From: an uncultured virus (IMG/VR IMGVR_UViG_3300015244_001911)
Lineage: Duplodnaviria > Heunggongvirae > Uroviricota > Caudoviricetes
Virus record (IMG/VR): IMGVR_UViG_3300015244_001911
Span: 1-64,000 of that record
Length of the DNA stretch: 64,000 nt
Direction: 5' to 3' (one strand)
Positions within the stretch are counted from its first letter, which is position 1. Each line of letters begins with the position of its first letter. Positions 26,985 through 51,254 of the stretch are shown one piece after another. Made by a program: the position numbers and the translations under genes. The notes below the pieces were generated by a model that did not search any database, was not told the origin of the DNA, and saw only the letters and a list, made by a program, of their open reading frames with translations.

Positions 26985-27659
26985 GTGGCAGATTCTGAAA
27001 TATTAAACACCGATAATTTTGACGGAGGCAGCTCGCTACAAACTGGCGAAACCCTTGTAGTTGGTGGTAGCGCTGGGTTTGCTATAACACCATCGGGAGC
27101 CACTGCTGGATTCGAAATAGAATACCTCAATATAGCAAGACAACTGGATGAGCTGGAGATAATAGAAGCTACATTCCAAAGATTCAACGATCCCAATGAA
27201 ATTGAATTTATAAAGGAATCTTTTGATGTTGTACACCAATCTAAGACACTTGATACGTTAAATGTGGTGGACTTTTTTCACCCGCTTCAAAGTTTTTCAA
27301 ATTACCAAAAACAGACCTTTGTTATACTACCAAGAACATCTGCTAATTTAGACCCATCCTCATTTACTAGCACTAATGGGGAGGTTTCGATGCTGATAGC
27401 TAGAGCCAATTATTTGCCAGGAACCCCTAGGGAAGAAAAGGTTATCTTCTGGGATTATAAAGGATCACAAAGAAATATAATGGGCGAGGTCATGATATTG
27501 ACCGGAGCTATAAAGGAAGATATCCCCTGGAAAGGATGGGATGTTGATCCATTTTCAACATATGGGCACACGGGTCCAGCCAATAGCGCTAATGGTGGAT
27601 TTATTTTTACCAACCCAACCGACTCTGAGGTCCAATTAACAGTAATAACAGCAAATTAA
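26985..27659 (+). CDS. Hypothetical (probably virion) protein, paralog of next gene
   Basis: GTG start; shares WxYxG, MGExMxLxG, GW and NGGxxFxNP with the next ORF. Confidence 0.65.
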   Translation: MADSEILNTDNFDGGSSLQTGETLVVGGSAGFAITPSGATAGFEIEYLNIARQLDELEIIEATFQRFNDPNEIEFIKESFDVVHQSKTLDTLNVVDFFHPLQSFSNYQKQTFVILPRTSANLDPSSFTSTNGEVSMLIARANYLPGTPREEKVIFWDYKGSQRNIMGEVMILTGAIKEDIPWKGWDVDPFSTYGHTGPANSANGGFIFTNPTDSEVQLTVITAN

Positions 27660-27660
27660 G

Positions 27661-28158
27661 ATGGCAACTCAACCAATAACATGTCCGTATGATGTACTAG
27701 AAGGATTTAGATTCTATCGAGGTAATTTAGTGCTCGATAACGGTAACACATCAAATCCACCAAAATATCTTTCAATGAAGGATCTTAATATAGAGGTGGA
27801 TAGGTTTTCGAGAAGCAGAGTTACATTGAAGCCTGGTGCATACTCACTTTTGAGTCAGACTGACATTGGAGATCAATATGGCTACGTTTCTTTCATAGCG
27901 GTTAAAGCCATTTATCCAAGTTCCACTTTGGAGTCTAGAAAGTATATAAACTGGACATACCAGGGAAATACCAATTATATGGGTGAACTTATGGTTCTTT
28001 CTGGACAGAGAATATCCTCATCCGATTCGGAATTTGAAGGATGGAATTTATCAAAACCTGGAACATTAGCAAGTGATAGCGTGGGCAATGGCGGTATAGT
28101 TTTTCATAACCCCAGCACGGAAATCACGGTTAAGTTGGAAATATTAGTGTGTGAATGA
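27661..28158 (+). CDS. Hypothetical (probably virion) protein
   Basis: Paralog of 26985..27659. Confidence 0.65.
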   Translation: MATQPITCPYDVLEGFRFYRGNLVLDNGNTSNPPKYLSMKDLNIEVDRFSRSRVTLKPGAYSLLSQTDIGDQYGYVSFIAVKAIYPSSTLESRKYINWTYQGNTNYMGELMVLSGQRISSSDSEFEGWNLSKPGTLASDSVGNGGIVFHNPSTEITVKLEILVCE

Positions 28159-28241: not shown

Positions 28242-30773
28242 ATGGACTTTATAAACCAAGTTAAAAAACTAAAAGAACTAACAAAATCACCGGAGGTAAA
28301 ATCTTTGTGTGAGGGCTTCCTTAACGGCGAATCCGTTTCTAAGGACGAATTGATAGCTTCTATCAACGAACATAATAATTCAGGAGCAATCCAGAACGAC
28401 GTACCAAACGTTGTTAATCACATAGAAGCAATAAGAAAAGAGGAGAGTGAAGTCTCTAAAAGAACTGCTGCTGCTTTGATGGAATCTTGGGGCGGACTAG
28501 GAGGTAGAACTTCTTCAAACTCTGGATCTTATGTTGATAAGAAAGAACAAGAGGAGAAAAAATCAGAGAATCTTTTCGAAAGCATCTCTAAATTGGACAC
28601 ATCTGATCCCGTAACGGTTTCTTTCATTGAGGCACAAGGAGTTAAAAATCTTGGCATCATGGAGGCAATCTCTAAGATAAAGGAATCTTCTATCTACTCA
28701 TACCCTAAAGCTAAAATCGTATGTGAGCAATATCAGAATCTTTTATCTGCTAAAAGATTACCGGAATTTACTGTTATTCATAATTTTATTGCAGAACTAG
28801 AATCTTTCAGCTGGGACAATTCAGTTACCCCTATTGCTGAAGAGCTTAAAGCTAAAGCTAAAAAATATTCGAGAGAAATTGAAGTTGCTAAAGTTTTGGA
28901 AGCAATCAAAACTAGCGGTAGTTCTTCTTTCTACTCTGAACTTTCTGAAACTTTAAATACTTGGTTGGTTTCTGAAAGTAAGTCAAACGGTCTTTTGGTT
29001 AAAGATATTTCTAAATACGGTTTCAATCCGGTAGTTAGAAACTTGATCAACTTCTTGAATGTTAACGAAAACAAAGATACAAGAAAACTTGAAATTCCAG
29101 TAAATGCCCAAGGAGAATCTAGTGTATCTAAAGTATACTCTCCGGTTTTATTTGAAAACGGTAGAACATTCTTCTATATTGGAGGATCAATATTCGAAGC
29201 AACTGAGAAAGAATTGGTTAGATTATCAGAAAAACAAATTTCAAATCTTCCTGCTGATTATAGCAAATTAATAGAATCTTCTAGAAAATCACACGTTTCT
29301 ATTAACGAGAACGGAATCTCAATTAAATTTGGCAAGAAAATAGTTAAATTGGTAGAGGAAAACGAGAACGTTGAGGTTTATCTAGGTAAGGATAAACTTA
29401 AATTTGGTAACGTTGCAAGCTTAGCTAAAATATTAGGTCTAGAATCTGGATCTTATTTTGGAGTTAATGAATCTGAAGTTGTACATGATACGATGGTATT
29501 ATACACAAACTACTCTAACATCGTTGAACTAGATTTTGCTAAGAGCATAACTTCTAATATCTACGAGGGTGTTTCTGCGAATCTTTTCAAATGGAATGAT
29601 CAGATCTACGTTCAGAAGATCAATCAGGCTATGAATGAGAATTCAATTTATAAAGTGAATGGTACTCAGGCAGTTTCTATGGTTAAATCTTATTTAAGAT
29701 ATGACATATCTGAAGGTCTAACCGATTTCTTAGAAGGTGAGAATAAAATTAAATCTGTCATGGTAAATGACAGAACGAAGGTTCTTGAGAATATTACAAG
29801 AGTTGAAGGCGAGATTTCTAAGATCAATGCTTTAACCGAATCTAATAACCTTTACAGAGAATCTAAACAAATTTTAACAGCTAAATCAATTCTTGAAAAA
29901 GAATTAAGCATATTAAAAGAAAAATGGAATCAGATTAACTCCGAACTTTCTAGAATAGAGGAAGAAATTAAAATTTCTGATGAGATTAACGTTTCAGAGG
30001 ATGAAAAATTTAACATTGGTGATTTCATTAAAGTTAAAGAATCAGGAGAAACTGGAAAGATAATTTCGGTTGATGGTACATCTGGAAGATATACAATTCT
30101 TTTGGATAACGGAAAAACTTCGGATTTCTTAGTAAATGAGATTTCTGATCTTGAAGAAGCTTTAAGCCAAGCAGCAGAGAAAAACTCTGAAGAAGCTGAA
30201 GAAGAAGGCGAAGAGGAAGTTAAAGAATCAAACAATCTAAATAAATCTACTCTAAGCATAGAGGAGCAAAAAAATCTACTAAAAACTTTTGCTGATAATC
30301 ACGGATTTTCTAAAGCACCAAGAGGTGAAGGAGATAAGGATATAGCAATGGAACTTGATTCTCTTCATGGATACAACATCACAATGAACGAGGCTAAAGA
30401 CAAAAAAGAAAAGGGAGATTTAGCTAAAGCACCGGGTAACAATAAGAAAGAAAAAGGTAAAGTTGAAGGTGAGGATCTTTTAGCAGATGCTCCAGAAACT
30501 AAAGACAAAACCGATTTTGATGGTGAAGATGTTGACGGGGAAAAATACGAAATAGGATATAACCTTAGAGAAGGCGAAAATAAATTAGCGGAAGCACCAG
30601 ATGCTGAAGCAAAAAGCAACGCTTCTACCAAATTAACCGGAGACATTAAAAAAAGTATGAATCTAGCGGAAGCCCCTGGTAAAGAAGGTGATATCGATTT
30701 CGAAGGTGATTCTGACGATACTGGTTATAATTTGGACGAAGCAGATGAATCAGACGAAGTAAAAAAAAACTAA
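28242..30773 (+). CDS. Large acidic late protein (probable prohead core/head protein); possible -1 frameshift extension to 30934
   Basis: Late promoter at 28212; many (L/I)xE sites; LAxAP repeats near the C-terminus. Confidence 0.7.
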   Translation: MDFINQVKKLKELTKSPEVKSLCEGFLNGESVSKDELIASINEHNNSGAIQNDVPNVVNHIEAIRKEESEVSKRTAAALMESWGGLGGRTSSNSGSYVDKKEQEEKKSENLFESISKLDTSDPVTVSFIEAQGVKNLGIMEAISKIKESSIYSYPKAKIVCEQYQNLLSAKRLPEFTVIHNFIAELESFSWDNSVTPIAEELKAKAKKYSREIEVAKVLEAIKTSGSSSFYSELSETLNTWLVSESKSNGLLVKDISKYGFNPVVRNLINFLNVNENKDTRKLEIPVNAQGESSVSKVYSPVLFENGRTFFYIGGSIFEATEKELVRLSEKQISNLPADYSKLIESSRKSHVSINENGISIKFGKKIVKLVEENENVEVYLGKDKLKFGNVASLAKILGLESGSYFGVNESEVVHDTMVLYTNYSNIVELDFAKSITSNIYEGVSANLFKWNDQIYVQKINQAMNENSIYKVNGTQAVSMVKSYLRYDISEGLTDFLEGENKIKSVMVNDRTKVLENITRVEGEISKINALTESNNLYRESKQILTAKSILEKELSILKEKWNQINSELSRIEEEIKISDEINVSEDEKFNIGDFIKVKESGETGKIISVDGTSGRYTILLDNGKTSDFLVNEISDLEEALSQAAEKNSEEAEEEGEEEVKESNNLNKSTLSIEEQKNLLKTFADNHGFSKAPRGEGDKDIAMELDSLHGYNITMNEAKDKKEKGDLAKAPGNNKKEKGKVEGEDLLADAPETKDKTDFDGEDVDGEKYEIGYNLREGENKLAEAPDAEAKSNASTKLTGDIKKSMNLAEAPGKEGDIDFEGDSDDTGYNLDEADESDEVKKN

Positions 30774-30940
30774 GTCGCAACTTTTATTTCGCTCCTAAAG
30801 CTGAAAATCAGAACAAACCGGGCGAAAAATTCGTACAGTCATCCGAAGGAAAGCTAAGTAAAGCACCCGATGGTAAAAAGATAACAGATAACGAAGAGGA
30901 AGACTCTGACGATCCCGAAGATACTAAAGAATAAATCTAA

Positions 30941-30971
30941 AGAATGTAGCCAAAAGCTACATTCTTTTTTT
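30941..30971 (+). terminator. Rho-independent terminator
   Basis: AGAATGTAGC-CAAAA-GCTACATTCT followed by a T run. Confidence 0.8.
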
Positions 30972-31028: not shown

Positions 31029-31388
31029 ATGGCAAAAGAATATGTTAAGAACAGTGAATTATTAGCCGCTGTAGTAGAATCAAAGAATGCGGGTAAGCTC
31101 ACTCCTGAAACCATAGCAATGTTTACATTGATGATATCGGGGATCGCCAAAAAGATGTCATATAAGGATCCAGAAGACAGAGAAGATTGCATGGCTTTTG
31201 CTATGGAAGATCTTTGTAAATATTGGAATCGATTTAATCCAGAAAAATCTAATAATCCTTTTGCATACTTTACACAGATAGCAAAGAATGGATTTGCTAA
31301 GGGGTGGAAAAAATTACATCCGCCAAAAAACCCAAAAACTATACCGTTTAGTTATATTACCGGGGATGATAACTCGTATAATGTTTAA
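31029..31388 (+). CDS. gp55: Late-transcription sigma factor (T4 gp55-like)
   Basis: YVKNSELL...DREDC...FNPEKSNNPFAYFTQIAKN. Confidence 0.8.
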   Translation: MAKEYVKNSELLAAVVESKNAGKLTPETIAMFTLMISGIAKKMSYKDPEDREDCMAFAMEDLCKYWNRFNPEKSNNPFAYFTQIAKNGFAKGWKKLHPPKNPKTIPFSYITGDDNSYNV

Positions 31389-31396
31389 TTAACATT

Positions 31397-31882
31397 ATGA
31401 CTGATATAAAGAAAGTAAAACCGAACGGGGAATATAGATCTGGAAAATATGAACCTAAGAACCCTGAAAAGTACATAGGGGATATCCATAATATAATATA
31501 TAGATCTTCTTGGGAGTACAGATTCTGTACATACTGTGACACTAACGATGCAATCGTTAAATGGAGCTCCGAACCGGTATCAATAGACTACTATAATCCA
31601 CTCGATAAGAAATCACATAAGTATCATGTTGATTTCTATATGAAGGTTATAAAGGACTCAGGCGAATCACAAGATTGGATTATAGAGATAAAACCGGAAA
31701 GCCAAACGAAGAAGCCACTATACGAAGGAACAATGACGGTTGCTAAGCTTAAATCCTACAATAGAAACATGCAAATCTGGATAACCAATCAAGCTAAATT
31801 TAAAGCAGCTAAGGAATGGGCAGAGAAAAGAGGATATAGATTTGGCGTGATTGATGAGAATTTTTTATTTAAAAGTAAATAA
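31397..31882 (+). CDS. gp4: Head completion nuclease (T4 gp4-like)
   Basis: PKNPEKYIGD..IIYRSSWE, WSSE, YHVDF and EIKP motifs. Confidence 0.9.
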   Translation: MTDIKKVKPNGEYRSGKYEPKNPEKYIGDIHNIIYRSSWEYRFCTYCDTNDAIVKWSSEPVSIDYYNPLDKKSHKYHVDFYMKVIKDSGESQDWIIEIKPESQTKKPLYEGTMTVAKLKSYNRNMQIWITNQAKFKAAKEWAEKRGYRFGVIDENFLFKSK

Positions 31883-32484
31883 TGTATAGAGATCTCGTAC
31901 TCGAATATAAGGATGATCCTGAAAATAAGGGGGATATTTTTTCCATAACTGACGAATTATTTTTAAATAAATATTTTAAAAATGCTAGTCCGGAGAAGAT
32001 ATTTTACCCACCCTTTGTTCCTGGAGAGATATACACGTTTAATTACCAGACCGATGCTAAAATATCCGAGGATAGGCCATTTATAGACAGAATGCCACTC
32101 GTACTCTGTACTAATGTGTTTGACACGAAGGAGTCAGGTACTATTGTAAAGGGGATAGACCTTATAACGGTTCCGCATAGAATTAGAATTGACATTATCG
32201 GTAAAATATATGATACTTTTACCGGTCAAATAAAAGATAACGAGGAATCTTATGATAAGGGTGGGGTAAAAAGTCCAGTGAACCTGAAAGATTCAAATTT
32301 AGCTATCTTATTAAAGAATACGGGATATAGGAATGCTCTCTTTGGATTTAAATATAAGTTCATAAGAGAACCTAAGGTTATTTCGGTTAGTGACTGGGCT
32401 AAAATACCATATTTGAGGGTAAATTCTATAGAGGGGTTACCTATACAGGGGATATATAAAGAATATCAATCGAAATTAATTTAA
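31882..32484 (+). CDS. DNA end protector protein (T4 gp2-like)
   Basis: PGEIYTFNY...DRMPLV...GIDL pattern; next to gp4. Confidence 0.6.
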   Translation: MYRDLVLEYKDDPENKGDIFSITDELFLNKYFKNASPEKIFYPPFVPGEIYTFNYQTDAKISEDRPFIDRMPLVLCTNVFDTKESGTIVKGIDLITVPHRIRIDIIGKIYDTFTGQIKDNEESYDKGGVKSPVNLKDSNLAILLKNTGYRNALFGFKYKFIREPKVISVSDWAKIPYLRVNSIEGLPIQGIYKEYQSKLI

Positions 32485-32518
32485 AAATATCGATAGAATG
32501 AATAAACTATTTGAATAA

Positions 32519-34129
32519 ATGGCTGGTTTTGTAGACAATAATAACCCATCTCAGACTCCTGTTGTACAGAGGATAAGGGATTCTGTGAGAAGGATTAGCA
32601 CTTTCGGAATGAAGTACGACGACATGGTTATTAGAAATTCCCAGGCAGTTGGGATAACCGAAGCGGCTTTTTTAAACAAAAATAAATCCAATGTCGAGGA
32701 TGAGAGTATGTTATGGACTCTTGCCAAACAGGACATCTCTACTAGACAGTTTATTGGATACTTCGACAAGGACTATAAGGGTAAACGTGACTTCCTGAGG
32801 AAGTTTTCACTTAATCCGGAAATTGAATGGGTGCTCGATACCGTGTGCGATGAGGCAATTTCTTATGACCCCTCCAACTTTTTTGCATATCCGGATTTTA
32901 TAGATCTTAGCGATATAAATGAAAAACTCAAGGATGATCTATATGAGACCTATAAAAGACTATATGATACCTGGGGATTCTCTGATGATATAACTGCTTG
33001 GCAATATTTCAGACAGTTTATTATTGATGGATTTTTAGCATTTGAGATCATCTATGATGATAAGGGCCAAAATATCATAGGATTTAAAGAACTGGATGCC
33101 GTTACACTTGTACCTAGTGTAGAAAAGCAGATAGATGGATCTTTTGTTAATACGTGGACACAATATCCGCAGGATCCCAAGAGAAAAAGAGTTCTTTACG
33201 ATCCTCAGATCATATACATATCATATGCTAAGGGTAATGCTATCTCAAGAATAAGTTATATTGAGAGATTAATCAGGCCTTATAACATCCTTAGGATAAT
33301 GGAGTACACCAGAGTTATCTGGTCAGTAATGAATGCTTCATTTAAATTAAAGATGACAGTTCCTATTGGATCAAAATCACCTCAAAAAGGTATGCAGACC
33401 CTTGGTGAGTTAATGAGCATCTATAAGGAGGATATTGAGCTTAATGACGAGAGCGGGGAGTTAACTATAGATGGTAGGCCAAAAATACAGTTCTATAAGA
33501 ATTATCTAATGCCTTCCGGTGTTAACGGTACTCCAACCATAGAGCCTTTAAACACTGAGGGACCAAATTTAAATGATCCACAGCCTCTAGCATACTTCTT
33601 CGATAAGTTCATATTGGAATCTAAGGTACCTCCTTCCAGATTTCATAATCCTGATGGTGGAAGTACATCACCTTATTCTAACGGAGCTGAGGGATTGGAC
33701 AAGGAGGAGATTAGATTCGCCAAGTTTATATCAAGACTTAGATCAACATTCCAGGAGATTATGGTTAAGCCACTTTGGATACAAATGGTTAAAAAATATC
33801 CTAAGCTTGAAGAGGATTTCTTGTTCAAGAGTCAATTGGGGCTTAATTATTTTTCTGATAATCCATTTAAGTTAAATCAAGAGATGGATATGATGAATAA
33901 GAAAAAAGAAGCCATCACAGCAATGGGAGGATTGGTTGGTGATGAGGATAAACCATATTTCTCTAATGCTTTCCTTATTGAAACCTTCCTGGGTATGTCC
34001 AAACAGGATATAGATGCAAACAAGGAAGCGATGGAGAGAAAAGAGAAAGAGAAGAAAAAAGCCGAAGAAAAAGGCGGTGAGGAAGAGAAAAAAGAGGGTG
34101 AAGAGGAAGCACCAGCAGTAACACTATAA
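32519..34129 (+). CDS. gp20: Portal protein 1 (gp20-like)
   Basis: PEIEWVLDTVCDEAI, IDG, SYIERLIRPYNILRIME, KVPPSRF and EEIRFAKFI motifs; late promoter at 32451. Confidence 0.88.
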   Translation: MAGFVDNNNPSQTPVVQRIRDSVRRISTFGMKYDDMVIRNSQAVGITEAAFLNKNKSNVEDESMLWTLAKQDISTRQFIGYFDKDYKGKRDFLRKFSLNPEIEWVLDTVCDEAISYDPSNFFAYPDFIDLSDINEKLKDDLYETYKRLYDTWGFSDDITAWQYFRQFIIDGFLAFEIIYDDKGQNIIGFKELDAVTLVPSVEKQIDGSFVNTWTQYPQDPKRKRVLYDPQIIYISYAKGNAISRISYIERLIRPYNILRIMEYTRVIWSVMNASFKLKMTVPIGSKSPQKGMQTLGELMSIYKEDIELNDESGELTIDGRPKIQFYKNYLMPSGVNGTPTIEPLNTEGPNLNDPQPLAYFFDKFILESKVPPSRFHNPDGGSTSPYSNGAEGLDKEEIRFAKFISRLRSTFQEIMVKPLWIQMVKKYPKLEEDFLFKSQLGLNYFSDNPFKLNQEMDMMNKKKEAITAMGGLVGDEDKPYFSNAFLIETFLGMSKQDIDANKEAMERKEKEKKKAEEKGGEEEKKEGEEEAPAVTL

Positions 34130-34133
34130 TAAA

Positions 34134-35756
34134 ATGGCAGGATTTTTAGATTATTTAAAACCCAATCAATCTGCTCTAGGTAACATTCTAAAAAACCTAG
34201 GCAACATATCAAAATTTGGTATGCAGTATGATGATATGGTTGTGAGAAATTCTCAAGCCATTGGTAAGACTGAGGGATATTTTTTCAATCAGGACGGTAC
34301 TGGTTTCACCCAAAATGATGCCTTTTATTGGACTGCTTCGTATCAGGACACTAAGGTAAGAAAATATATCGCTTACTTTGATAGGGATTATATCGAGAAA
34401 AGAAATTACCTTAGAAAATTTTCTCTTAACGGAGAGATTGAATTTATTATCGATACAGTTACCGATGAGTCAATAACTTATGATGATAGAAACTACTTCG
34501 CACAACCATCTTTTATAAATCTGGATCTTAAGGATAAGATTAAAGATGAGATGTCAACCAATTATAATAGGCTCTATAACGTATTCGGATTTCAGAATAG
34601 TGTACTAGCTTGGCAGTACTTTAAGCAATTCTTGATTGATGGATTTCTAGCTTTTGAAATTATCTATGATAACAAGGGTAAGGAAGTTATAGGATTTAAG
34701 GAATTAGACCCATCATCTCTTCAGCCCGTTGTTGAAAAAGTCGGTGAAAATGAATATAAACAATTCTGGATCCAGTACCCGCAGAATCCTCAAATGAGCA
34801 GGAAGCTTACAAATGAGCAGGTTATTTATATTTCATATGCTAAGGGTAATAGCGTTTCTAGAGTTAGTTATATCGAAAGACTAGTTAGATCTTATAACAT
34901 TTTAAGAATCATGGAAAATTCCAGAGTTATCTGGAATGTGATGAACGCTTCATATAGGCTTAAATTTATTATTCCGATTGGTAGTCAGTCACCTCAGAAA
35001 GCAATGCAAACACTCGGACAACTGATGTCGAATTACAAGGAGGATATTTCAATCAATGATGCTTCGGGTGAATTAACAATTAACGGTAGACCGAAGGTTC
35101 AATTTTATAAAAATTACCTGTTTCCTGAAAAGGATGGGCAATCACCAACTATCGAGTCTCTAAACCCAAGCGGTCCTGATTTTAATGTTATGGAGAATGT
35201 TTTATACTTCTTTAATAAACTTAAGATGGATTCAAAAATTCCTTATGCTAGATTTGCTTCCAAAAACGGAACACCAGCAAACTATCAGATTTCTATAGAT
35301 CAGTTAGAAAGGGACGAAATTAGATTTGAAAAGTTCCTTAGAAGGCTAAGATCAATATTCCAGGAAATACTCGTTAAACCACTTTATTTACAAATGTGTC
35401 TGGATCATCCGGAGCTATCTAGAGATAAAAGCTTTAAAGCAAATATCGGACTTAATTACTATCGTGATAGCGAATTTGAGGAGATGGTGGAGATGTCGGG
35501 CTTTACAAAAAGAAGCGAATTCATAAAAGGACTAGGCGAACTTAAAGTAAAAGCTGGCGAGGAAGAAAAAGCATATTTTGATAACGACTTCCTAATACAG
35601 AGATATCTGGGTATGAATCCTGATCAGATTAAAATGAATCAGAAGTACAAGGAAAAAGAAGCTAAAGCAGCAGAGAAAACTAAAGGCGGAGCGGAAGGTG
35701 AAGCCGGCGGAGAGGAAGCAGCAGGAGAAGAGGAAGCACCAGCAGTAACATTATAA
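34134..35756 (+). CDS. gp20: Portal protein 2 (gp20-like paralog)
   Basis: Full-length colinear paralog with KIPYARF and DEIRFEKFL. Confidence 0.88.
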   Translation: MAGFLDYLKPNQSALGNILKNLGNISKFGMQYDDMVVRNSQAIGKTEGYFFNQDGTGFTQNDAFYWTASYQDTKVRKYIAYFDRDYIEKRNYLRKFSLNGEIEFIIDTVTDESITYDDRNYFAQPSFINLDLKDKIKDEMSTNYNRLYNVFGFQNSVLAWQYFKQFLIDGFLAFEIIYDNKGKEVIGFKELDPSSLQPVVEKVGENEYKQFWIQYPQNPQMSRKLTNEQVIYISYAKGNSVSRVSYIERLVRSYNILRIMENSRVIWNVMNASYRLKFIIPIGSQSPQKAMQTLGQLMSNYKEDISINDASGELTINGRPKVQFYKNYLFPEKDGQSPTIESLNPSGPDFNVMENVLYFFNKLKMDSKIPYARFASKNGTPANYQISIDQLERDEIRFEKFLRRLRSIFQEILVKPLYLQMCLDHPELSRDKSFKANIGLNYYRDSEFEEMVEMSGFTKRSEFIKGLGELKVKAGEEEKAYFDNDFLIQRYLGMNPDQIKMNQKYKEKEAKAAEKTKGGAEGEAGGEEAAGEEEAPAVTL

Positions 35757-35775: not shown

Positions 35776-36753
35776 ATGGAATTGGATCTACTTAAAAAAT
35801 TTTCTCGCAGTAAAATATTAATCGTCGGGGATGTTATGCTGGACCATTATGTGATGGGTTCAGTGACAAGAATTTCTCCGGAAGCACCAGTTCCTGTTCT
35901 TCTGAAAGAATCTGAACATTATTATCTGGGTGGAGCAGGAAATGTTTTTTCCAATATACATTCATTGGGTGGTAATGGTGATATTCTAACCGTTACTGGA
36001 AATGATTCAAACGGAGACCTAGTAAAAAACATGATAAAGGAAAAATCCTCCCTAAGTATCCTAGTTAAAACCGACAAGAGAAGAACCACTATTAAATCAA
36101 GATATCTTGGAAATTCGCATCAGCTTCTCAGAGTTGATGACGAAGATTGTGATGATATCGACAAGGAGACAGAGGATTATTTTATAGATCTGCTTGAATC
36201 TACTATTGAATTTTATGAGTGCGTTATTATCGAAGATTATAATAAAGGATTAATGACTCCCAGAATTATAAGAAGAACGATAGAACTTTGCAATGCTAAA
36301 AACAAACCAGTTATAGTTGATCCCAAAGTAAAGAATATAGATTTTTATAAAGGATGCACCGTACTTAAACCGAACTTCTCCGAATTTTGCACTATTGCGG
36401 GAAAGAAAATGTCTGCATCTGATTTTGATCAAATAACGGAGGAAGCCAGAAAAATTCTGGACAGTATGGAAATAAAGGGTATTCTGGTGACTCTTTCTGA
36501 TAAGGGCATGCTATATGTTACCCGATACGAATCTTATCACAGCCCAGGGTATCCAATAAACGTTTCTGATGTTTCCGGTGCCGGTGACACAGTAACAGCT
36601 ATGTTCTCTCTTTGTATATCATCTGGAGTTGATATCAAAAAGGCATTAAAGCTATGTAACATAGCAGGATCTATTGCCTGCTCACTAGTTGGAGCTGTCT
36701 CAGTTAGTCTTAACGAGATCACGGAGAGCAAATATTTCAGATCTAACCCATAG
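35776..36753 (+). CDS. rfaE1: D-glycero-D-manno-heptose-7-phosphate kinase (RfaE/HldE domain I, PfkB family)
   Basis: GDVMLDHY, RISPEAPVPV, GGAGNV, DYNKG, VDPK and DVSGAGDT motifs. Confidence 0.92.
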   Translation: MELDLLKKFSRSKILIVGDVMLDHYVMGSVTRISPEAPVPVLLKESEHYYLGGAGNVFSNIHSLGGNGDILTVTGNDSNGDLVKNMIKEKSSLSILVKTDKRRTTIKSRYLGNSHQLLRVDDEDCDDIDKETEDYFIDLLESTIEFYECVIIEDYNKGLMTPRIIRRTIELCNAKNKPVIVDPKVKNIDFYKGCTVLKPNFSEFCTIAGKKMSASDFDQITEEARKILDSMEIKGILVTLSDKGMLYVTRYESYHSPGYPINVSDVSGAGDTVTAMFSLCISSGVDIKKALKLCNIAGSIACSLVGAVSVSLNEITESKYFRSNP

Positions 36754-36781
36754 AATATTTTTTTTAGCCGAAATCCTTGTC

Positions 36782-36789
36782 TATATTTG
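36782..36789 (+). promoter_or_regulatory. Bacteroidota-type -7 element TATATTTG
   Basis: Upstream of the ligase gene. Confidence 0.6.
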
Positions 36790-36807
36790 TGAAAATTAAA
36801 AACAAAT

Positions 36808-38139
36808 ATGATACAGGAATTAAGACTATTTAAGACATTAGAAAATCTAACTGGAGAAGGATCACAGAAAGCCAAACAGATCATCATAGGCGATAATCTG
36901 AGTGATAGGTTCTCTTATATGTTGGATATTTGCTATAACCCATTCGTTACAACAAAACTTCATAAGATCTCTTTTAACGAGGCTTTATCTGACGCTAATC
37001 ATAATCATTGGGAAGATTTTAAAAAGCTAATAGAGGAGCTTAAAACGGCTCCTGCAGCAAACGATTTACTAAGAGGGAGAGCTCAGGATTTGGTTTCTCA
37101 AAAAATATCAGAAGACCCGCAGGAAGATCTTGAACTCAGAACAGTTCTTATGAAAATTCTAACCAAAAGAATGAATATTGGGATTGGAGCCAAGCTAATT
37201 AACAAGGCGGTTAAAAAAGAACTTATTCCGGATCCATCACTCATGTTAGCAACAGACGATCACGAAACCATAGAAAAATGGGACAAAATATACTGTGAGG
37301 AGAAATATGATGGTGTCAGAGTTATTGCACTTTACAAGAATGGGGAATTCTCATATTTCACCAGGGCGTTTAACGAATTAGACTCGAGTTGCTTTCCTAA
37401 GATTACTTTTGATCTTAAAACATGCCTTATAAACAGCGGATTAAAAGGCGATTGGTTTTTCGACGGTGAATTAACGGACCTCAATAGAAAATCAGTAAGT
37501 GGTAAAGTTACCCAGATATTGAGAGGAAAGGTTGATTCATCAATAGAGTCCGGTTTATTATTCAATGTGTTTGATTTTGAAGAGGCTTCATCACTAGAGA
37601 AAGGCTCCGGTGTTATAGATTACAAAACACGTAGAGACACTTTGGAAAAGATACTTCGTTATATCGGTTCCGATTCCCCAGTAAAACTGGCACAAATGTG
37701 GGAGCTTAGTGATCCTAGCGAGGTAACGGCTATTTATAAGAAAATAGTTGATTTAGGAGGTGAGGGCGTTATTTGCAAGGATAACGGAGTATATGAATGT
37801 AAAAGATCTAAATCTTGGGTTAAATTTAAAGAGGTTAGTGATTGCGATCTTGAAATAACTGGTTGGTATCCAGGAGAGGGCAAGAGGGAAGGATTTATCG
37901 GAGGATTCATTTTGACCGATAGCTCAAGAACACTAAATGTTAAGGTTGGAGCAGGATTTACTGATAATGATCTAAAGGCACTAAGCCAAGATCCCGACTC
38001 GCATATCGGAAAAATTGCTGCTATCCAATATAACGTGACTATCACGGACAAGCACGGAAATAGATCTTTATTTCTTCCACGTTTCATAGAGGTCAGAAGT
38101 GATAAAAATTCACCTGACGATTTTTCGGGAAAATTTTAA
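36808..38139 (+). CDS. ATP-dependent DNA ligase
   Basis: EKYDGVR, FDGEL, EGVICK and FLPRF..RSDK motifs. Confidence 0.95.
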   Translation: MIQELRLFKTLENLTGEGSQKAKQIIIGDNLSDRFSYMLDICYNPFVTTKLHKISFNEALSDANHNHWEDFKKLIEELKTAPAANDLLRGRAQDLVSQKISEDPQEDLELRTVLMKILTKRMNIGIGAKLINKAVKKELIPDPSLMLATDDHETIEKWDKIYCEEKYDGVRVIALYKNGEFSYFTRAFNELDSSCFPKITFDLKTCLINSGLKGDWFFDGELTDLNRKSVSGKVTQILRGKVDSSIESGLLFNVFDFEEASSLEKGSGVIDYKTRRDTLEKILRYIGSDSPVKLAQMWELSDPSEVTAIYKKIVDLGGEGVICKDNGVYECKRSKSWVKFKEVSDCDLEITGWYPGEGKREGFIGGFILTDSSRTLNVKVGAGFTDNDLKALSQDPDSHIGKIAAIQYNVTITDKHGNRSLFLPRFIEVRSDKNSPDDFSGKF

Positions 38140-38167
38140 GAAACAAGCTTCTAATTAACAACTAAAA
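38140..38167 (+). promoter_or_regulatory. Putative middle promoter GAAAC-N17-CTAAAA
   Basis: Conserved 17-nt spacer. Confidence 0.65.
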
Positions 38168-38172
38168 AGAAT

Positions 38173-39117
38173 ATGATACAAGAATTATTAACAGAGAAAC
38201 TTAGACCAAAAGAGCTAAGACATATGATTCTCCCTCAGAGAATCTCTAAGATATTTGAGAATGGATTAAATCAGAACGTTCTTTTAAGCGGTCCTCCAGG
38301 ATGTGGAAAAACAACTTTAGCAAAAATTTTAGCTGCTCCGTATCCGCATATTTTTATAAACGGATCCGATGAAAGCTCGGTTGAAACTATCAGAGTCAAG
38401 ATAAATGATTTCTGTTCAACTATATCAGTCCTAGATGGTAGATCGTCTAAGAAGGTTGTTATATTGGATGAGTTTGACGGGGTATCAGATCAGTTTCACA
38501 AAGCCCTCCGCGGAACTATTGAGAAGTTTGCTAGCAATACAAGATTCGTTGCAACCTGCAACTATATAAATAAGATTCCCGATGCAATCCAGAGTAGATT
38601 TGAGGTTATTGATTTTAATCCAGTTAGCAATGACGAGGAGGAATCATTAAAAGCAGAATGGAACAAGAGAGTAAGTCTTATATTATCAAAGCTTAATATC
38701 TCAATCGATGCAGACTCTCTATTGGAGTTCCAAAAGAACTACTACCCAGATTTCAGATCGGCATTGAATAAGATCCAAAGTTGGAACATCGAGAATGTGA
38801 CCGTGGTGGATTCTAAAAAAATGCAGGAGCTTGGATGGTCTTATGAATCTTTATATGATCTAATAGTAACATCTAAAGACCCGGTTAAAAATTATCAAAC
38901 AATAGTTGGTGAATATCAAGGTAAGGTTGATGATGTGATGTCTGCCCTTGGCGAGGAGTTTATTAAATGGATAATTGATAACAAACCAGAATTAAGAAAA
39001 ATAATCCCTGGTGTTATCATCCTTGTTGCAGATCACCAATCACAAAGAAACCAGGTGATTGACCCTATGGTTTCTCTTCTATCACTTGTTTATCAAATAC
39101 AGAAATTAGTAGAATAG
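38173..39117 (+). CDS. gp44: Clamp loader AAA+ subunit (gp44/RFC-like)
   Basis: EKLRP, GPPGCGKTT, ILDEFD, CNY and SRF motifs. Confidence 0.92.
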   Translation: MIQELLTEKLRPKELRHMILPQRISKIFENGLNQNVLLSGPPGCGKTTLAKILAAPYPHIFINGSDESSVETIRVKINDFCSTISVLDGRSSKKVVILDEFDGVSDQFHKALRGTIEKFASNTRFVATCNYINKIPDAIQSRFEVIDFNPVSNDEEESLKAEWNKRVSLILSKLNISIDADSLLEFQKNYYPDFRSALNKIQSWNIENVTVVDSKKMQELGWSYESLYDLIVTSKDPVKNYQTIVGEYQGKVDDVMSALGEEFIKWIIDNKPELRKIIPGVIILVADHQSQRNQVIDPMVSLLSLVYQIQKLVE

Positions 39118-39648
39118 ATGAGAAGAGTAATATTAGTTGGTAAGGGTGGTTCAGGAAAAGATCACGCAAGAAAGCTTTTAGAAGATAGAGGATTTAGATA
39201 TTGCGTTTCACACACGACAAGGCCTCCTAGAGAGGGTGAGATACAGGGAAAAGATTATCATTTTATAAGCAGAGATGCTGCTGCCCACGATTTTGAAGCG
39301 AAGGGACTTTTCTATGAATATGTTATATTTAATGGATGGGTATACGGAACCACGAAGGAGGAGTTCGTAAAATCAAATCTATTTATAATGACACCATCAG
39401 GGATAGCTAAACTCCTTCCTGAAGATAGAAAAGAATCATTAATAGTTTATTTAGATATAGACGAAGAAACAAGAAGACTGAGACTTTTAGGCCGGAGAGA
39501 TGCTGATAGCGTGGAGAGAAGATTAAAAGCTGACGACGACGATTTTGAAAACTTTAAAGATTTTGACCATAGAATAGTAGACCCTGAATTCTCAATTGAT
39601 GAGGAATGGGCTTCGGTTGAGAATTATAAAACGGAACAATTAAAATAA
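39118..39648 (+). CDS. gmk: Guanylate kinase-like protein
   Basis: GKGGSGKD, SHTTRPPREGE..GKDYHF and YGT motifs. Confidence 0.85.
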   Translation: MRRVILVGKGGSGKDHARKLLEDRGFRYCVSHTTRPPREGEIQGKDYHFISRDAAAHDFEAKGLFYEYVIFNGWVYGTTKEEFVKSNLFIMTPSGIAKLLPEDRKESLIVYLDIDEETRRLRLLGRRDADSVERRLKADDDDFENFKDFDHRIVDPEFSIDEEWASVENYKTEQLK

Positions 39649-39651
39649 AAT

Positions 39652-40800
39652 ATGGTTAATATACTGATAGACGGAAATTACATCTTTCATAAAACATTCG
39701 GAATATTCGGCGGTTACGGAAATGTCGATCCAGGTAAGATACTTAAGGATAAATCTGAACAAGCAGCTTTTATTAGAAAAGTATCAACTGATCTCTGTTC
39801 TTCCCTAAAGATGATACCTCAGGGTGGTAGATTAGTTTTCACCGCAGATAGCAGAAGTTGGAGAAAGGATATTGAAATAGAGGACGGTGGTTATAAATCA
39901 GGAAGAGTTAAGGACGAAGCCGTTGACTGGACTATCTTTTTTGAACTTATGCAATCATTTGGTTCTCATCTCGAAAAGATGGGATTTATTTTTTCTAAGG
40001 TCGAAGGAGCTGAAGGTGATGATCTTCTAATGTTTTGGTCGGATCACTTTAATAGCAAAAAAGAAAATTGTATAATCATAACGGGTGATAAAGATCTACA
40101 TCAGTTAGCAAAAATATCTGGAGGTTCATGGACTGCCATATGGAATAATAATTCGAAGAAGAATACCATATCTGTTCCGAGAGGATGGAAAGAATCATGG
40201 CTTGATAAGAACGAGTCAGTTAACATTTTTAATATGGCTTCAACAATCTCTCCCGAGAAGGAAAGATTTAAAGACTTCCTAAAGAAGGTTCAAATCGAAG
40301 AAATTGAGAGCAGACCTTTCATATTCAATAAGATACTCATTGGCGATAAAGGTGATTCTGTTCCTGGTGTATTCACTTACATGCAAAACAATAAACCAGT
40401 CAATTTTACACAGAAGAAATCGGATACCGTATACGAATCATTTTTAGAATCTGAATGGTGCGACGAATCTTTCGGAACATTAGTCAACTCATCGGAAAGT
40501 GGGGAATTTCTAAATTGGTTAAGTGGATTAGTAATTAGAACATCTAAGGGTGTTGATAGCTCCGAGAATAGAATTAAGGTAAAATCTAATATAATTAGAA
40601 ACTTTAAGCTCATGTGGTTAAATTCATCAATGATACCCGATTTTGTTACTAATGGATGTATGGATGAAATATCAAGAGGTATTTCGCTAGAAAAAAGATC
40701 GGTAACTCTAGATAGAATTAAAATATTAGAAGGAACCGAATGGGTTACCTCCGGATATCAACCTAGGGGATTCGATCCTTTTGAACATCTTATAAAATAA
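39652..40800 (+). CDS. 5'-3' exonuclease / T4 RNase H-like flap nuclease
   Basis: IDGN, SWRK, EGDD, TGDKDL.QL and GDKGD.VP motifs. Confidence 0.88.
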   Translation: MVNILIDGNYIFHKTFGIFGGYGNVDPGKILKDKSEQAAFIRKVSTDLCSSLKMIPQGGRLVFTADSRSWRKDIEIEDGGYKSGRVKDEAVDWTIFFELMQSFGSHLEKMGFIFSKVEGAEGDDLLMFWSDHFNSKKENCIIITGDKDLHQLAKISGGSWTAIWNNNSKKNTISVPRGWKESWLDKNESVNIFNMASTISPEKERFKDFLKKVQIEEIESRPFIFNKILIGDKGDSVPGVFTYMQNNKPVNFTQKKSDTVYESFLESEWCDESFGTLVNSSESGEFLNWLSGLVIRTSKGVDSSENRIKVKSNIIRNFKLMWLNSSMIPDFVTNGCMDEISRGISLEKRSVTLDRIKILEGTEWVTSGYQPRGFDPFEHLIK

Positions 40801-40806
40801 AAGATA

Positions 40807-41226
40807 ATGCAGCTTTTTGATATAGTTAAAAATATATTTTCGACAAACGACAAGAACTGGAAATCTGTGGGGAGGATCGATAAATCAAGGAATTTTTTCA
40901 TGGTTAATCGAATAATGTCTATACAGTTCCCCATCCAGGCGAACCAGTTCAATAAATTAAAAGTTACCCCTGCACCTGTTGTTGATTGGTGGAGAGACAC
41001 ACTATCGCATAGATTTAGCAAACCACCGGTCTGGATATACACCAAAACAAAAAAGGTGGAAAAGCAGGAGGAAACACAAATCAAGGAATCTCCTGAGGTT
41101 GAGTCCTTTATAAGGGATAAATACAAGATAACAAGAAGGGATCTTCTCCAGATAAAAGAATTCTATCCGGATAGATACCAAGCATGGCTATCCGATATAG
41201 CTGAACAAACCGGACTTCAAAAATAG
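40807..41226 (+). CDS. Hypothetical protein, possible gp62-like clamp loader small subunit
   Basis: FMVNRIMS...ANQFN resembles gp62; weak match. Confidence 0.4.
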   Translation: MQLFDIVKNIFSTNDKNWKSVGRIDKSRNFFMVNRIMSIQFPIQANQFNKLKVTPAPVVDWWRDTLSHRFSKPPVWIYTKTKKVEKQEETQIKESPEVESFIRDKYKITRRDLLQIKEFYPDRYQAWLSDIAEQTGLQK

Positions 41227-41240
41227 GAATATATAGAGGA

Positions 41241-41795: not shown

Positions 41796-41799
41796 TCTA

Positions 41800-42279: not shown

Positions 42280-42286
42280 AATAAAG

Positions 42287-42314
42287 GAAACTAATTCCAA
42301 TCCCACGGGTACAA
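42287..42314 (+). promoter_or_regulatory. Putative middle promoter GAAAC-N17-GTACAA
   Basis: Conserved 17-nt spacer. Confidence 0.6.
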
Positions 42315-42330
42315 AGAATAAAGACATTCG

Positions 42331-43233: not shown

Positions 43234-43283
43234 TTTTTTTATTTCGAGTTTATTGTTTATATTTACAGAAATTTTAGAGACCC

Positions 43284-43985: not shown

Positions 43986-44010
43986 CAAATACAAAACCAC
44001 ACAATACCTT

Positions 44011-44046
44011 AAAAGCTTTTCTTGATATATAGAGAAAAGCTTTTTT
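44011..44046 (+). terminator. Inverted repeat / terminator whose loop holds a GATATATA late promoter
   Basis: AAAAGCTTTTC-ttGATATATAga-GAAAAGCTTTT followed by Ts. Confidence 0.6.
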
Positions 44047-44047
44047 A

Positions 44048-44863: not shown

Positions 44864-44871
44864 TACAAAAG

Positions 44872-47553: not shown

Positions 47554-49503
47554 ATGCCAACAACTCAAAAATTGAACGAAGATTTGGTCTTTATCCTCGA
47601 AAGACAAAGTACAGTCCTTGAATCTAAAAAAACAGATTCGGATGATTATGTCTTAGAAGGTACTGCTGCTGTGTTTGGAAAAGAGAACAACAACAACAGA
47701 ATATATGAAGAGGCCGAATATCTTCCACACCTAAACTACCTTAAGGACAAAATAGCTCAAAAGAGGTTGGTTGGTGAATTGGATCACCCTGAGAAATTCG
47801 ATGTTTCTTTGAAAAACATTTCACACATCATCACTGATCTTAATCACGATAAAGCTAACAGAGAGATTAAGATTAAGGTAAGACTTTTAGATACCCCAGC
47901 AGGACAAATTGCTAAAAAGCTAGTAGATGCTGGAGTACCACTTTCAATATCGTCAAGAGCAGCTGGTGCAGTTGGTAACGATAAGAAAGTACAAATCAAG
48001 AAAATATTCACTTACGATTTAGTTGCCGATCCAGGATTTCAGGACGCACAATTAGAAAGAGTATACGAAAGCGCAGGCTATACATTTCAAGAATTCTTTG
48101 AAATGAGAAATAACAGCGTTTTATCCGATCTAGTTTGTATGAATGAATCATTAGGTCTAGAAAATGAATCTACAGTGAAGATATATAAAGTTGAAAATAA
48201 CGAAGAATTCAACAAACTCGTATCAAAATCAGACAAAAATAAAACAATCCTCATGGAGAATAATGAATTTGTTACTGCGGAAGAACTTAATCAATATTCA
48301 ATTTTCTTGAAAAAGGAAATGGATTCGATGAAGTCTACATTGGCAGAAATTAAAGAACAAAAAGAAAAATTAAGCGAATCCGCTGAAGAGTCTAACACTT
48401 CAGACTTGGAAGAGAGAGTAGCAAAACTTGAAAAGTACTCTGAGTATTTAGCTGAGAATTTGGACAGTGCTATTAAATACGGTGAGTATTTAGCAGAGAA
48501 TCTAGATTCAAGCATCAGCTACACTAAATACTTGGCTGAGAATTTGGACAAGAACATCTCTTACTCTAAGTATTTAGCAGAAAACGTAGACAAATCAATT
48601 TCTTACTCTGAGTATGTTGCAGAGAGCGTTGATAAATCTATCGAGTATTCTAAATATCTTGCTGAGAAGGTAGATCAAAATATCCAATATTCTGAGTACT
48701 TAGCAGAAAACGTAGACAAAGGTATTGCTTATAGCGAATATCTAGGTGAGAACCTTGACAAAGGTATTGCTTACACTGAATACGTTGCTGAGAAACTAAA
48801 TAATGGTATTGAATACTCTGAGTATCTAGGTGAGAATCTAAACAAATCAATTGAGTACTCTGATTATTTAGCAGAGAACGTTAACAGAGGTTTAGATTAT
48901 TCTGAGTACTTAGCAGAAAAAGTTAAAAGATCAATCTCTTATAGTGAATATATTGCTGAAAACGTTAATAACGGAACAATGAATAAAACAGAATCACTAA
49001 GAGAAAGCGTAGATCTTTCAGCTCAAGCAGGTTTAAATGAATCTGGATTTGCTGGAGATTACACTAATCTTTCATCACAAATTGATAATTTGATAGAATC
49101 AGTTAAAACACAAAAAACTGAGTCAAATATAAACGAAGCTTCTAGAAACGTAGAAGCACCAGCCGACACACAAAAGGCAGAAACTCTTAACGAAGAGGAG
49201 AACACCAACAAAACAGGTCTTAAGTTTATCGATGAGATGCCTGAAGAATACACTCAGGTTTGGGAATCACTTACAGAAAGTCACCAGCAATCTATTGTTG
49301 CTCAAAGTAACTTCTATAGGTTAGATACACCTTACCAGATTAAAAACTTCTGGTCAACACGTCAACTTGGAACTAAAACAGTTGGGGTTCAAAAACTAGA
49401 CGAGAGTGAAAACGTAGCTCAAACAAATGCAAACCAGGCTTATTCAAGTGATTACATGAATTACATAGCTTCTGCATTAGAGCAAAAATTCGCAAGAAGA
49501 TAA
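47554..49503 (+). CDS. gp21: Prohead protease (gp21-like) fused to scaffold/core domain
   Basis: NNNRIY, GELDHP, LDTPAG, ISSRAAG and YDLVADPG motifs followed by coiled-coil repeats; directly before MCP. Confidence 0.9.
   Translation: MPTTQKLNEDLVFILERQSTVLESKKTDSDDYVLEGTAAVFGKENNNNRIYEEAEYLPHLNYLKDKIAQKRLVGELDHPEKFDVSLKNISHIITDLNHDKANREIKIKVRLLDTPAGQIAKKLVDAGVPLSISSRAAGAVGNDKKVQIKKIFTYDLVADPGFQDAQLERVYESAGYTFQEFFEMRNNSVLSDLVCMNESLGLENESTVKIYKVENNEEFNKLVSKSDKNKTILMENNEFVTAEELNQYSIFLKKEMDSMKSTLAEIKEQKEKLSESAEESNTSDLEERVAKLEKYSEYLAENLDSAIKYGEYLAENLDSSISYTKYLAENLDKNISYSKYLAENVDKSISYSEYVAESVDKSIEYSKYLAEKVDQNIQYSEYLAENVDKGIAYSEYLGENLDKGIAYTEYVAEKLNNGIEYSEYLGENLNKSIEYSDYLAENVNRGLDYSEYLAEKVKRSISYSEYIAENVNNGTMNKTESLRESVDLSAQAGLNESGFAGDYTNLSSQIDNLIESVKTQKTESNINEASRNVEAPADTQKAETLNEEENTNKTGLKFIDEMPEEYTQVWESLTESHQQSIVAQSNFYRLDTPYQIKNFWSTRQLGTKTVGVQKLDESENVAQTNANQAYSSDYMNYIASALEQKFARR
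48430..48969 (+). repeat. 13 copies of a degenerate 42-bp / 14-aa repeat (IxYSEYLAENLDKx)
   Basis: Counted in the translation. Confidence 0.9.
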
Positions 49504-49532
49504 ATTAAAAAATAAAAAAAACAACTAAAATC

Positions 49533-51254
49533 ATGAAATTGATTAACGAACAAGAAATCTATGATACCTGGTCTCCGATTATCGAGAGCAAAGCAGGGAT
49601 CACTGATTCAAGCAAAAAAGAGTGGTTGACTAAATACTGTCACTACCATTCATTAAACGAAAGTGCCGGAGCGTATAACTCATTAGGAGTTGTAAACGGT
49701 ATGGGTGCAGTAGCTCCGCCATTATACCCTGGAATGAGTGCATTCACAGGTACAGCTAACGCTGGTTTCTACAACAGCACAAACCAAGGTTCAGGAGATA
49801 AATTCCCTTCATTGTTACCATTAGCTATTCAGGTAGCTGCTAAAACAATCGGATTTGATATCGTTCCTGTTATCCCTATGTCTGGTCCAACTGGTATCTT
49901 GTCTTACTTAGACTACGTATACGCAGGTGGTAAATTAGCTGGTACAACTGGTGCTGATGCTTCAGGTGCTGATGCTTTAGCTAAAGCTCCTGCATTGATT
50001 AAATTCCCAGTTTACCAAGGTTCATCTGCAGGTGCAACTGGTGCTACAGCTGGAACATTCACAGTAGGTACTGGTTATACAGTTACTTCTGCTGCTGGTG
50101 GTGTATTAACATTAAAATTCGTGGGTCTATCAAGAATTGATGGTTTCCCAATCTTCGAAGTTGAAGGTGTTACTGCAAACTACACTGTTGCATCTATCAT
50201 CAACGGTACTTCTGTACAAGTTGCTACTGCTACTGGTATGTACACTGGTACTTCTTCATCATCTAACGGTTATGTTGCTCAATTAGTTAAAGCTTTAGAA
50301 GATCACATCCAAGGATTCTCTGGTGCTGGTTTCAACAACACCAACGATTGGCAAGGTCCTTACGTTGATGGTACTAAAACTTACAACCCAATGTTAAGAG
50401 GTGTTGCTGAGTCTACTTACTACAACTCAATGGGTCTTTCTACTTTCACTAAGTTCGTAGAAGCTGAGACTTTCCAAGTTGCTGCTTCAGTTACAACTGA
50501 GCAAATTCAAGACCTTAACAAACAATTCGGTATCGACGTTATCTCAATGATCGAGAACGCATTGGTTAATGAGGTTTCTCAAGCAATTAACAAGCACATC
50601 CTTTCAAGAGCATTCGCTTTAGGTTGGTCTAACCACATTCAGTTCAACAATGTTGAAAACCAAAACTTGAACTTGAACCTAATCCTTAGCGGTGCTGCTG
50701 GTACTACATCAAACTACGTTAACAAATCTGATGTTAATGTAACTATGGCATTGCCTGCAGGTCCTGCATCAACTTCTTACGAGAACTTGTCAACTTTACA
50801 AAGAAGACTATTCTCTAGAATTCTTGCAGCTGCAAACGTAGTAGCTAACAGAGGTAGAAGAGGTCCTGCTAACTTCATCGTAACAAACGCTGCAGTTGCA
50901 AGTGCACTTCAAGACATCTCTCAGTTCACTTTCGCTCCATTCTCTAACACGTTGACTCAAAACAACGGTACTTTATACCCTGTAGGTTCGCTTGCTGGTA
51001 TGACAGTTTACGTTGATCAAAACATGAGCTACAGCGATACAAGAGTATTGGTTGGTAGAAAAGGTGGTGATGACGAACCAGGACTTAAATTCATGCCTTA
51101 CATGATGGCTGAGTCTATTCAGACAATCTCTGAAGGTACAATGTCACCTAAGATCGCAGTTAAATCTAGATACGCTCTAGTTGAAGCTGGTATGTTACCT
51201 GAAACAATGTACTTAACATTCTATGTTAACGTGCCTTCAGGTGGTTTAGCATAA
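49533..51254 (+). CDS. gp23: Major capsid protein (gp23-like)
   Basis: W.PI.E, PMSGPTG, EQIQDL, RRGPANF, FMPY and PKIAVKSRYAL motifs; strongly biased codon usage. Confidence 0.93.
   Translation: MKLINEQEIYDTWSPIIESKAGITDSSKKEWLTKYCHYHSLNESAGAYNSLGVVNGMGAVAPPLYPGMSAFTGTANAGFYNSTNQGSGDKFPSLLPLAIQVAAKTIGFDIVPVIPMSGPTGILSYLDYVYAGGKLAGTTGADASGADALAKAPALIKFPVYQGSSAGATGATAGTFTVGTGYTVTSAAGGVLTLKFVGLSRIDGFPIFEVEGVTANYTVASIINGTSVQVATATGMYTGTSSSSNGYVAQLVKALEDHIQGFSGAGFNNTNDWQGPYVDGTKTYNPMLRGVAESTYYNSMGLSTFTKFVEAETFQVAASVTTEQIQDLNKQFGIDVISMIENALVNEVSQAINKHILSRAFALGWSNHIQFNNVENQNLNLNLILSGAAGTTSNYVNKSDVNVTMALPAGPASTSYENLSTLQRRLFSRILAAANVVANRGRRGPANFIVTNAAVASALQDISQFTFAPFSNTLTQNNGTLYPVGSLAGMTVYVDQNMSYSDTRVLVGRKGGDDEPGLKFMPYMMAESIQTISEGTMSPKIAVKSRYALVEAGMLPETMYLTFYVNVPSGGLA

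Follow-up and report, generated by a model that had tools for sequence, protein, structure and literature searches.

The window analysed here is a 64 kb portion (positions 1 to 64,000) of a 72 kb linear virus record, IMGVR_UViG_3300015244_001911, of an uncultured giant freshwater phage. It carries two genes in tandem, A (copy 1, upstream) and B (copy 2, downstream), each encoding an intact, full-length portal protein of the T4 gp20 type. The portal is the ring by which DNA passes into and out of the virus head, and a homododecamer built from a single gene is generally regarded as the rule for all tailed phages and herpesviruses. The twin portals are real, conserved and surprising. On balance we favour the explanation that the two products would co-assemble into one mixed dodecamer, most simply an alternating one. 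Coordinates are collected in Table 1.

Both open reading frames (ORFs) lie on the + strand and are separated by 4 bases. Searched against Pfam Portal_T4 (PF07230, cut-off 22.9 bits), A covered positions 9-432 of the 433-position model (E 7e-58, 197 bits) and B covered positions 4-433 (E 9e-67, 226 bits). Both also matched PHROG 213 and the PDB entries of T4 gp20 (3JA7, 6UZC, 9MKB, 9LU6), and they share the T4 family along the entire model. The order of wing, stem, clip and crown was colinear with T4 gp20 in sequence alignments to 3JA7, 6UZC and 9LU6. AlphaFold2 monomers calculated from 32-sequence alignments had mean predicted local distance difference test (pLDDT) scores of 48 and 51 and were set aside as too poor. 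A and B are 53% identical across 506 colinear residues and their synonymous sites are saturated, so the pair is not a collapsed repeat. The initial annotation of this DNA had described two intact, colinear and diverged gp20-like genes of 536 and 540 aa, and the ORFs, the PF07230 matches and the level of identity bear this out. The T4-type partner families gp55, gp4, gp2, gp14, gp17, gp18, gp19, gp21 and gp23 occur alongside the pair. By sequence and context A and B belong to the gp20 family, and only the one-gene rule fails. The T4 portal is a homododecamer from one gene, as are the homododecameric portals described for phi29, SPP1 and P22 (PMC4493910), whereas this phage retains two genes of full length.

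The A/B junction is spanned by a contig of an independent public freshwater run, which covers 32488-34527 and shows 0 differences. In 14 river, lake or freshwater runs (DNA, recorded or guessed), more than half of the words of the locus were present. Five viral-contig scans (each at most the best 80 of up to ∼550 confirmed stretches) together with 4 annotated records gave 300 loci, many of them repeat fetches of contigs already included. Among these redundant loci A was followed by B in 239 of the 245 of twin type; the remaining 6 (3 with A only, 3 with B only) all stop at a contig edge. The first subclade comprised 76 distinct A+B pairs (45 representatives at 95% identity), including one pair, L070, in which A is truncated at the 5′ end. 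The second subclade was reached by a profile search of cluster representatives, which gave a deeper A-like protein (P0122), and a scan with P0122. Its best 80 loci held tandem portals in 79, the last being cut by the contig end, and yielded 40 distinct pairs (19 representatives). Across both subclades there were 116 distinct pairs, and the gap between the paired genes was 1-23 bases in every one. No lone portal copy was found among the sampled twin-clade loci with contig room for a second. Exactly 2 full-length portals were present in 3/3 complete twin-clade genomes with terminal repeats (430, 373 and 434 kb). At one locus, L432 (1542-3164), one TAG lies in frame within the inner clip loop of copy 1. 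This frame is open under code 15, and the neighbouring genes need no recoding; the TAG may be an error, a variant or recoding, which look alike at this locus.

The nearest sister group carried a single portal in 42/42 viral loci, some with short flanks, and this was verified record-wide in 5/5 records, one of them complete at 374 kb. A metagenome scan added 4 pairs, 1 B fragment at a contig start and 75 sister-type single portals. When INPHARED was searched with B, 2219 records matched at 2221 places. Both extra places lay in the same 735 kb genome, where a candidate second portal was rejected as a fragment of only 62 residues. A requirement of large genomes for two portals was rejected, since G009, complete at 374 kb, and LR756500.1, at 462 kb, each carry a single portal.

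Maximum-likelihood trees were calculated with LG+G4 on subsets of 34 and 40 rows. The copy-1 clade across both subclades had support of 100/99 and the copy-2 clade 98/96-97. All twins grouped together with support of 98-99/96, and every single portal fell outside. The topology places one ancient tandem duplication before the split of the two subclades, with no secondary loss within the sample. Both clades persist across relatives. Within subclade 1 the distances of A and B correlate (r=0.95), with mean p-distances of 0.253 and 0.251. Ratios of nonsynonymous to synonymous substitution (dN/dS, Nei-Gojobori) in subclade 1 had medians of 0.013 for A and 0.013 for B, 18/2850 comparisons being unsaturated, and did not differ between copies over 10 disjoint pairs (Wilcoxon p=0.43). 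In subclade 2 the medians were 0.011 (copy 1) and 0.018 (copy 2), with 27/780 comparisons unsaturated. Strong purifying selection acts on each copy (dN/dS 0.01-0.02), and neither is decaying. No gene conversion was detected in the core, where same-genome minus cross-genome identity never departed from zero by more than 0.02 in any 40-residue window up to 520. The paralogues are identical at 134 of the 176 columns that each of the four groups conserves.

Lineages vary in whether a hydrophobic C-terminal motif (VTL/FTL/FKL type) is carried by both copies, by B alone or by A alone. The strict pattern is missing from both copies in 5/64 representatives, 4 of which end in near variants. This distribution fits a common task that either subunit could supply. 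The close match between the 3′ ends of A and B in the window may derive from codon bias or local conversion.

The positions at which the copies differ were compared in 64 representatives per copy and 38 single portals (33 from the viral scan and 5 from genome bins, three of the 5 being distant). T4 domain limits and loop roles were taken from PMC4493910 and PMC12929629. In contrast to T4, fixed differences separate the twin copies at the inner clip loop, at the channel loop and alpha7, in the tunnel loop and within the R-D-E motif. Sites diagnostic of copy 1 or copy 2 and fixed in both subclades made up 12/76 conserved columns in the clip, stem alpha7 and tunnel regions and 10/201 elsewhere (Fisher p=0.005, with post hoc domain grouping). 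Arg at the position of T4 R398 is found in 0/64 of copy 1, 64/64 of copy 2 and 38/38 single portals. Relative to the single portals, copy 1 has K77, N318, G336 and E337 mostly replaced, and copy 2 has D353, L357 and D394 replaced. Copy 1 also has Pro at the T4 T349 position and an uncharged inner clip loop. Loss of an invariant Thr at the T349 position was considered as a further copy-1 change and dropped, the nearest singles having V (21) or T (14) of 38. The net charge of the tunnel loop is at least +1 in 64/64 of copy 2, and 0 or below in 64/64 of copy 1 and 38/38 singles. The basic clip tip, the terminase-binding site of T4, is kept by both copies. Read from alignment columns, the fixed changes are reciprocal between the copies, and the ancestral losses may be complementary. 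The reciprocal changes include A K395/E396 vs B R393/D394, A D394 vs B E392, A D353 vs B V352 and A D318 vs B N317, besides the tunnel-loop charges. In T4 the clip holds an inter-subunit beta-sheet and the tunnel loops contact neighbouring subunits (PMC4493910).

The motif GATATATA occurs 13 times in the window, always on the + strand (shuffle mean 5.4; 0/100 shuffles reach 13). Occurrences start at 10107, 15283, 25958, 28212, 32451, 44024, 44799, 47521, 48180, 51316, 58305, 60192 and 62132. It is found ahead of the genes for neck, sheath, protease and portal A, whereas portal B has no such motif in front and none is found between A and B. GATATATA is likely the gp55-type late promoter of the clade, judging by placement and strand; the T4 counterpart is TATAAATA. 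A late promoter ahead of A and not of B would put both genes on one transcript. The initial annotation had assigned the pair to one late operon, a claim supported at the level of the motif by its placement and strand bias. A scan for sigma-70 promoters and terminators performed no better than chance. Contigs from RNA runs touch A and B; contigs cannot show expression and were hence not used as support.

In T4 the portal sits at a unique vertex and binds first the terminase and then gp13. In the twin clade the partners of the portal are single. The gp13-like adaptor, the gp14-type protein, the full-length terminase and the full-length capsid gene were each present in 1 copy in 3/3 complete genomes, weak distant paralogues of the capsid gene also existing; gp15 was not detected in these genomes. 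Tandem doubling of the tail tube is seen in the window and in 7/7 twin-portal records, and a single tube in 8/8 single-portal records, several of the records being fragments. The 16 twin tubes group in one clade (98/96), and their order within it is compatible with one doubling event or with two.

These observations argue for co-assembly of A and B in one ring. The copies are full length, equally constrained, never lost in the sample and apparently co-transcribed, and their partners are single. The different ancestral losses of the two copies fall in regions that make subunit and DNA contacts in T4, and two kinds of subunit, here paralogues, fit a 12-fold ring (PMC9548406). The same review states that ring homomers, once duplicated, typically end up in a common ring. 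In T4, roughly half of the portal positions can be taken by green fluorescent protein (GFP) fusion subunits (PMC9958956). In the proposed mechanism, A and B would be co-transcribed from one late promoter and made in near-equal amounts, and the products of the two genes would share one 12-subunit ring, in the simplest case as an alternating 6+6 arrangement. Such a ring would serve one terminase and one neck. As each copy has lost different ancestral residues, only the mixed ring would be functional, and of the tunnel loops in its channel six would be acidic and six basic. The change from homomer to heteromer may have been neutral; sister genomes of the same size have one portal, so the twin arrangement need not be adaptive. 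We regard co-assembly as somewhat probable. Strict alternation of A and B around the ring is a narrower claim that we hold as tentative. The heteromeric portal put forward in the initial annotation is partly supported, in that the persistence of both copies, selection and the tests against artefact came out in its favour, with A-B co-assembly inferred.

Several points weigh against co-assembly. A-B contact, stoichiometry and presence in the virion are predictions of the mixed-ring reading. The domain grouping that gave p=0.005 was picked post hoc, and since the 64 representatives share ancestry, any one fixed difference may go back to one event. Concerted change of the C-terminal motif is striking by eye, but pairing of close relatives gave no significant excess (11 vs 5, p=0.21), nor was it significant in subclade 2 (p=0.07-0.69). 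About 55% of duplicated homomers in E. coli remain separate homomers (PMC7480870). The differences in the DNA-facing loops fit two distinct homomeric rings equally well, and the doubled tail tube also fits two particle types.

The alternative that survives best, although we consider it unlikely, is that A and B form separate homomeric rings, giving two particle types or two portal vertices with a common capsid, terminase and neck and perhaps one tube protein each. The coincidence of tube and portal doubling (7/7 twin records and the window, against 8/8 records with one tube and one portal) would be accounted for, as would the different charge of the DNA-facing loops, and bacterial paralogues mostly remain homomeric (PMC7480870). 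However, the adaptor, gp14, terminase and capsid genes are single, and neither copy has been dropped in 116 distinct pairs, though two viable particle types would permit loss. A stand-alone ring of copy 1 is also hard to square with its lack of an Arg that is invariant in 38/38 sister singles. The two specialised vertices suggested in the initial annotation find no support in the genomes, both copies having the basic clip tip and the adaptor, gp14 and full terminase being single in 3/3; single partners are formally compatible with such vertices all the same.

Free mixing of A and B in variable ratios, each being ring-competent alone and the pair being kept for dosage or tuning, is slightly less probable still. 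T4 portals accept mixed subunits (PMC9958956), 134/176 columns conserved in all groups are identical between the paralogues, and both genes lie in one apparent transcription unit. Against this, about half of the residues differ, the core lacks gene conversion, and the differences were fixed before the subclades split with no loss observed, whereas redundant or dosage copies are expected to homogenise or disappear.

We consider it improbable that one copy is the true portal and the other a portal-derived assembly factor outside the mature dodecamer, such as a transient nucleating ring, a chaperone or a stacked second ring. Copy 1 would be the candidate, as it departs from more ancestral invariants (K77, N318, G336, E337, R395; unique P343) and has a slightly longer stem branch (0.13-0.14 vs 0.11). 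Yet all four domains are full length in both copies, both have the basic clip tip, and the copies evolve at equal rates (mean p-distances as above) with equal dN/dS. An assembly artefact or a recent decaying duplication, to which the TAG in copy 1 of L432 might point, is refuted by 53% identity with saturated synonymous sites, the contig matching across the junction, 116 distinct pairs and dN/dS of ∼0.01-0.02, so that the artefact raised in the initial annotation is ruled out.

Table 1. Positions of the twin portal genes, their diagnostic segments and related genes in the window
Feature	Positions	Strand	Basis or remark
Portal copy 1 (A), T4 gp20 family, 536 aa	32519..34129	+	ORF, PF07230, PHROG 213, PDB gp20 matches
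Portal copy 2 (B), T4 gp20 family, 540 aa	34134..35756	+	ORF, PF07230, PHROG 213, PDB gp20 matches
Inner clip loop of A (residues 331-338)	33509..33532	+	Uncharged, without the ancestral K..GE pattern; loop defined on T4 gp20 (PMC4493910)
Inner clip loop of B (residues 330-337)	35121..35144	+	Near ancestral state
Tunnel loop core of A (residues 376-390)	33644..33688	+	Net acidic or neutral
Tunnel loop core of B (residues 375-388)	35256..35297	+	Net basic, derived state
3′ end of A, encodes EEEAPAVTL	34100..34129	+	29/30 bases match 3′ end of B
3′ end of B, encodes EEEAPAVTL as in A	35727..35756	+	Sequence comparison
GATATATA, late-promoter-like motif before A	32451..32458	+	Function suggested by position and strand bias
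gp55-type late sigma factor, gp4-type head completion protein, gp2-type DNA end protector	31029..32484	+	Upstream of A
gp14-containing neck protein, single	10135-12624	+	Portal partner
Large terminase, single	13412-15235	+	Portal partner
Tandem tail-tube genes, 184 and 191 aa	18718-19272 and 19287-19862	+	56% identical
Prohead protease and major capsid protein	47554..51254	+	Pfam/PHROG families

The T4-type late genes of the window comprise the gp14-containing neck, terminase, sheath, tubes, gp55, gp4, gp2, protease and capsid. The gp2 gene lies immediately 5′ of the portals in 35/43 and 19/19 representative loci with room. Before the gp55 gene, a hairpin of 12-13 bp with T-runs on both strands (30939-30967) is a candidate bidirectional terminator. 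Genes for a PfkB-family kinase, DNA ligase, clamp loader, guanylate kinase and exonucleases (35776-47484) lie between the portals and the protease and capsid genes; where distant single-portal loci had room, the protease gene lies no more than 2.5 kb behind the portal (19/19). The neck protein has 829 aa, with a gp14-like core (∼residues 330-410) within large extra regions, and its LR756500.1 homologue has 650 aa. A stand-alone 263-aa paralogue of the terminase ATPase domain was found in 2/3 complete genomes (G001:173589-174230 and G003:196553-197164, minus strand), and in LR756500.1 a comparable 272-aa frame adjoins the terminase. Two tandem unannotated genes at 26985-27659 and 27661-28158 encode distant paralogues (30% identity over 118 residues), possibly a duplicated structural protein. 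The gene at 28242-30773, with the late-promoter-like motif ahead, encodes an acidic 843-aa protein with short C-terminal repeats and no Pfam or PHROG match, which may be an internal protein of the head or a scaffold.

Under table 11, long ORFs tile the window densely, and several relatives terminate portal genes with TAG. Gene starts are A-rich and lack a Shine-Dalgarno sequence. From these starts and the nearest relatives (PMC7162821), a Bacteroidota host is our guess. Jumbo-phage contigs of the sister and twin clades occur in prokaryote bins, among them L508 (425 kb, Pacearchaeota) and L507 (Saprospirales). These two contigs were probably mis-binned, and bin titles were not used for host assignment.

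By portal the nearest named relatives are LR756500.1, the Lak phages, PAU and PTm1, all of them single-portal huge phages. The sister clade around L330 and G009 has portals of ∼45-54% identity. The LR756500.1 portal is 43-46% identical, and this genome shares the order gp55-gp4-gp2-portal with the window. Lak phages (Mahaphage clade, proposed order Grandevirales) have portals of 33-36% identity; they read TAG as glutamine throughout the genome (PMC11165621), whereas the window reads under the standard code. The single-portal huge phages also differ from the twin clade in having one tail-tube gene instead of two. No report of twin portal genes was found in the literature searched, including the available parts of PMC7824862, PMC13573597, PMC10914622, PMC13037316, PMC7162821 and PMC11165621; subscription papers or supplements of huge-phage surveys could list them. 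Rings that changed from homomeric to heteromeric after duplication, namely the V-ATPase V0 ring, CCT, the exosome PH ring, Sm/Lsm and the proteasome, likewise derive from a duplicated cyclic homomer with both paralogues kept. Those examples are eukaryotic and cellular and their co-assembly is proven, in contrast to the co-assembly proposed here for a phage DNA portal.

If A and B do share one ring, a natural two-subunit portal would break the single-gene portal rule. Half of the subunits would be alterable independently, which is impossible with homomers, and it could be asked how many of the clip tips are required by the pentameric motor, in what way the tunnel loops gate DNA and by what means the mismatches of 12:5 and 12:6 are accommodated. 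The furthest-reaching picture, which we consider less likely than not, is of a large clade of freshwater jumbo phages with an obligate alternating (AB)6 portal. No other portal of tailed phages or herpesviruses is known to be six-fold and encoded by two genes. Acidic tunnel loops would alternate with basic ones along the DNA channel, and with a tail tube of two proteins, doubled in the same lineage, a large part of the conduit for DNA would be heteromeric. The mixed portal would also provide a phage case of the transition from homomeric to heteromeric rings, with extant single-gene sisters for comparison. Portal-based phylogenies of huge phages must keep the two paralogues apart.

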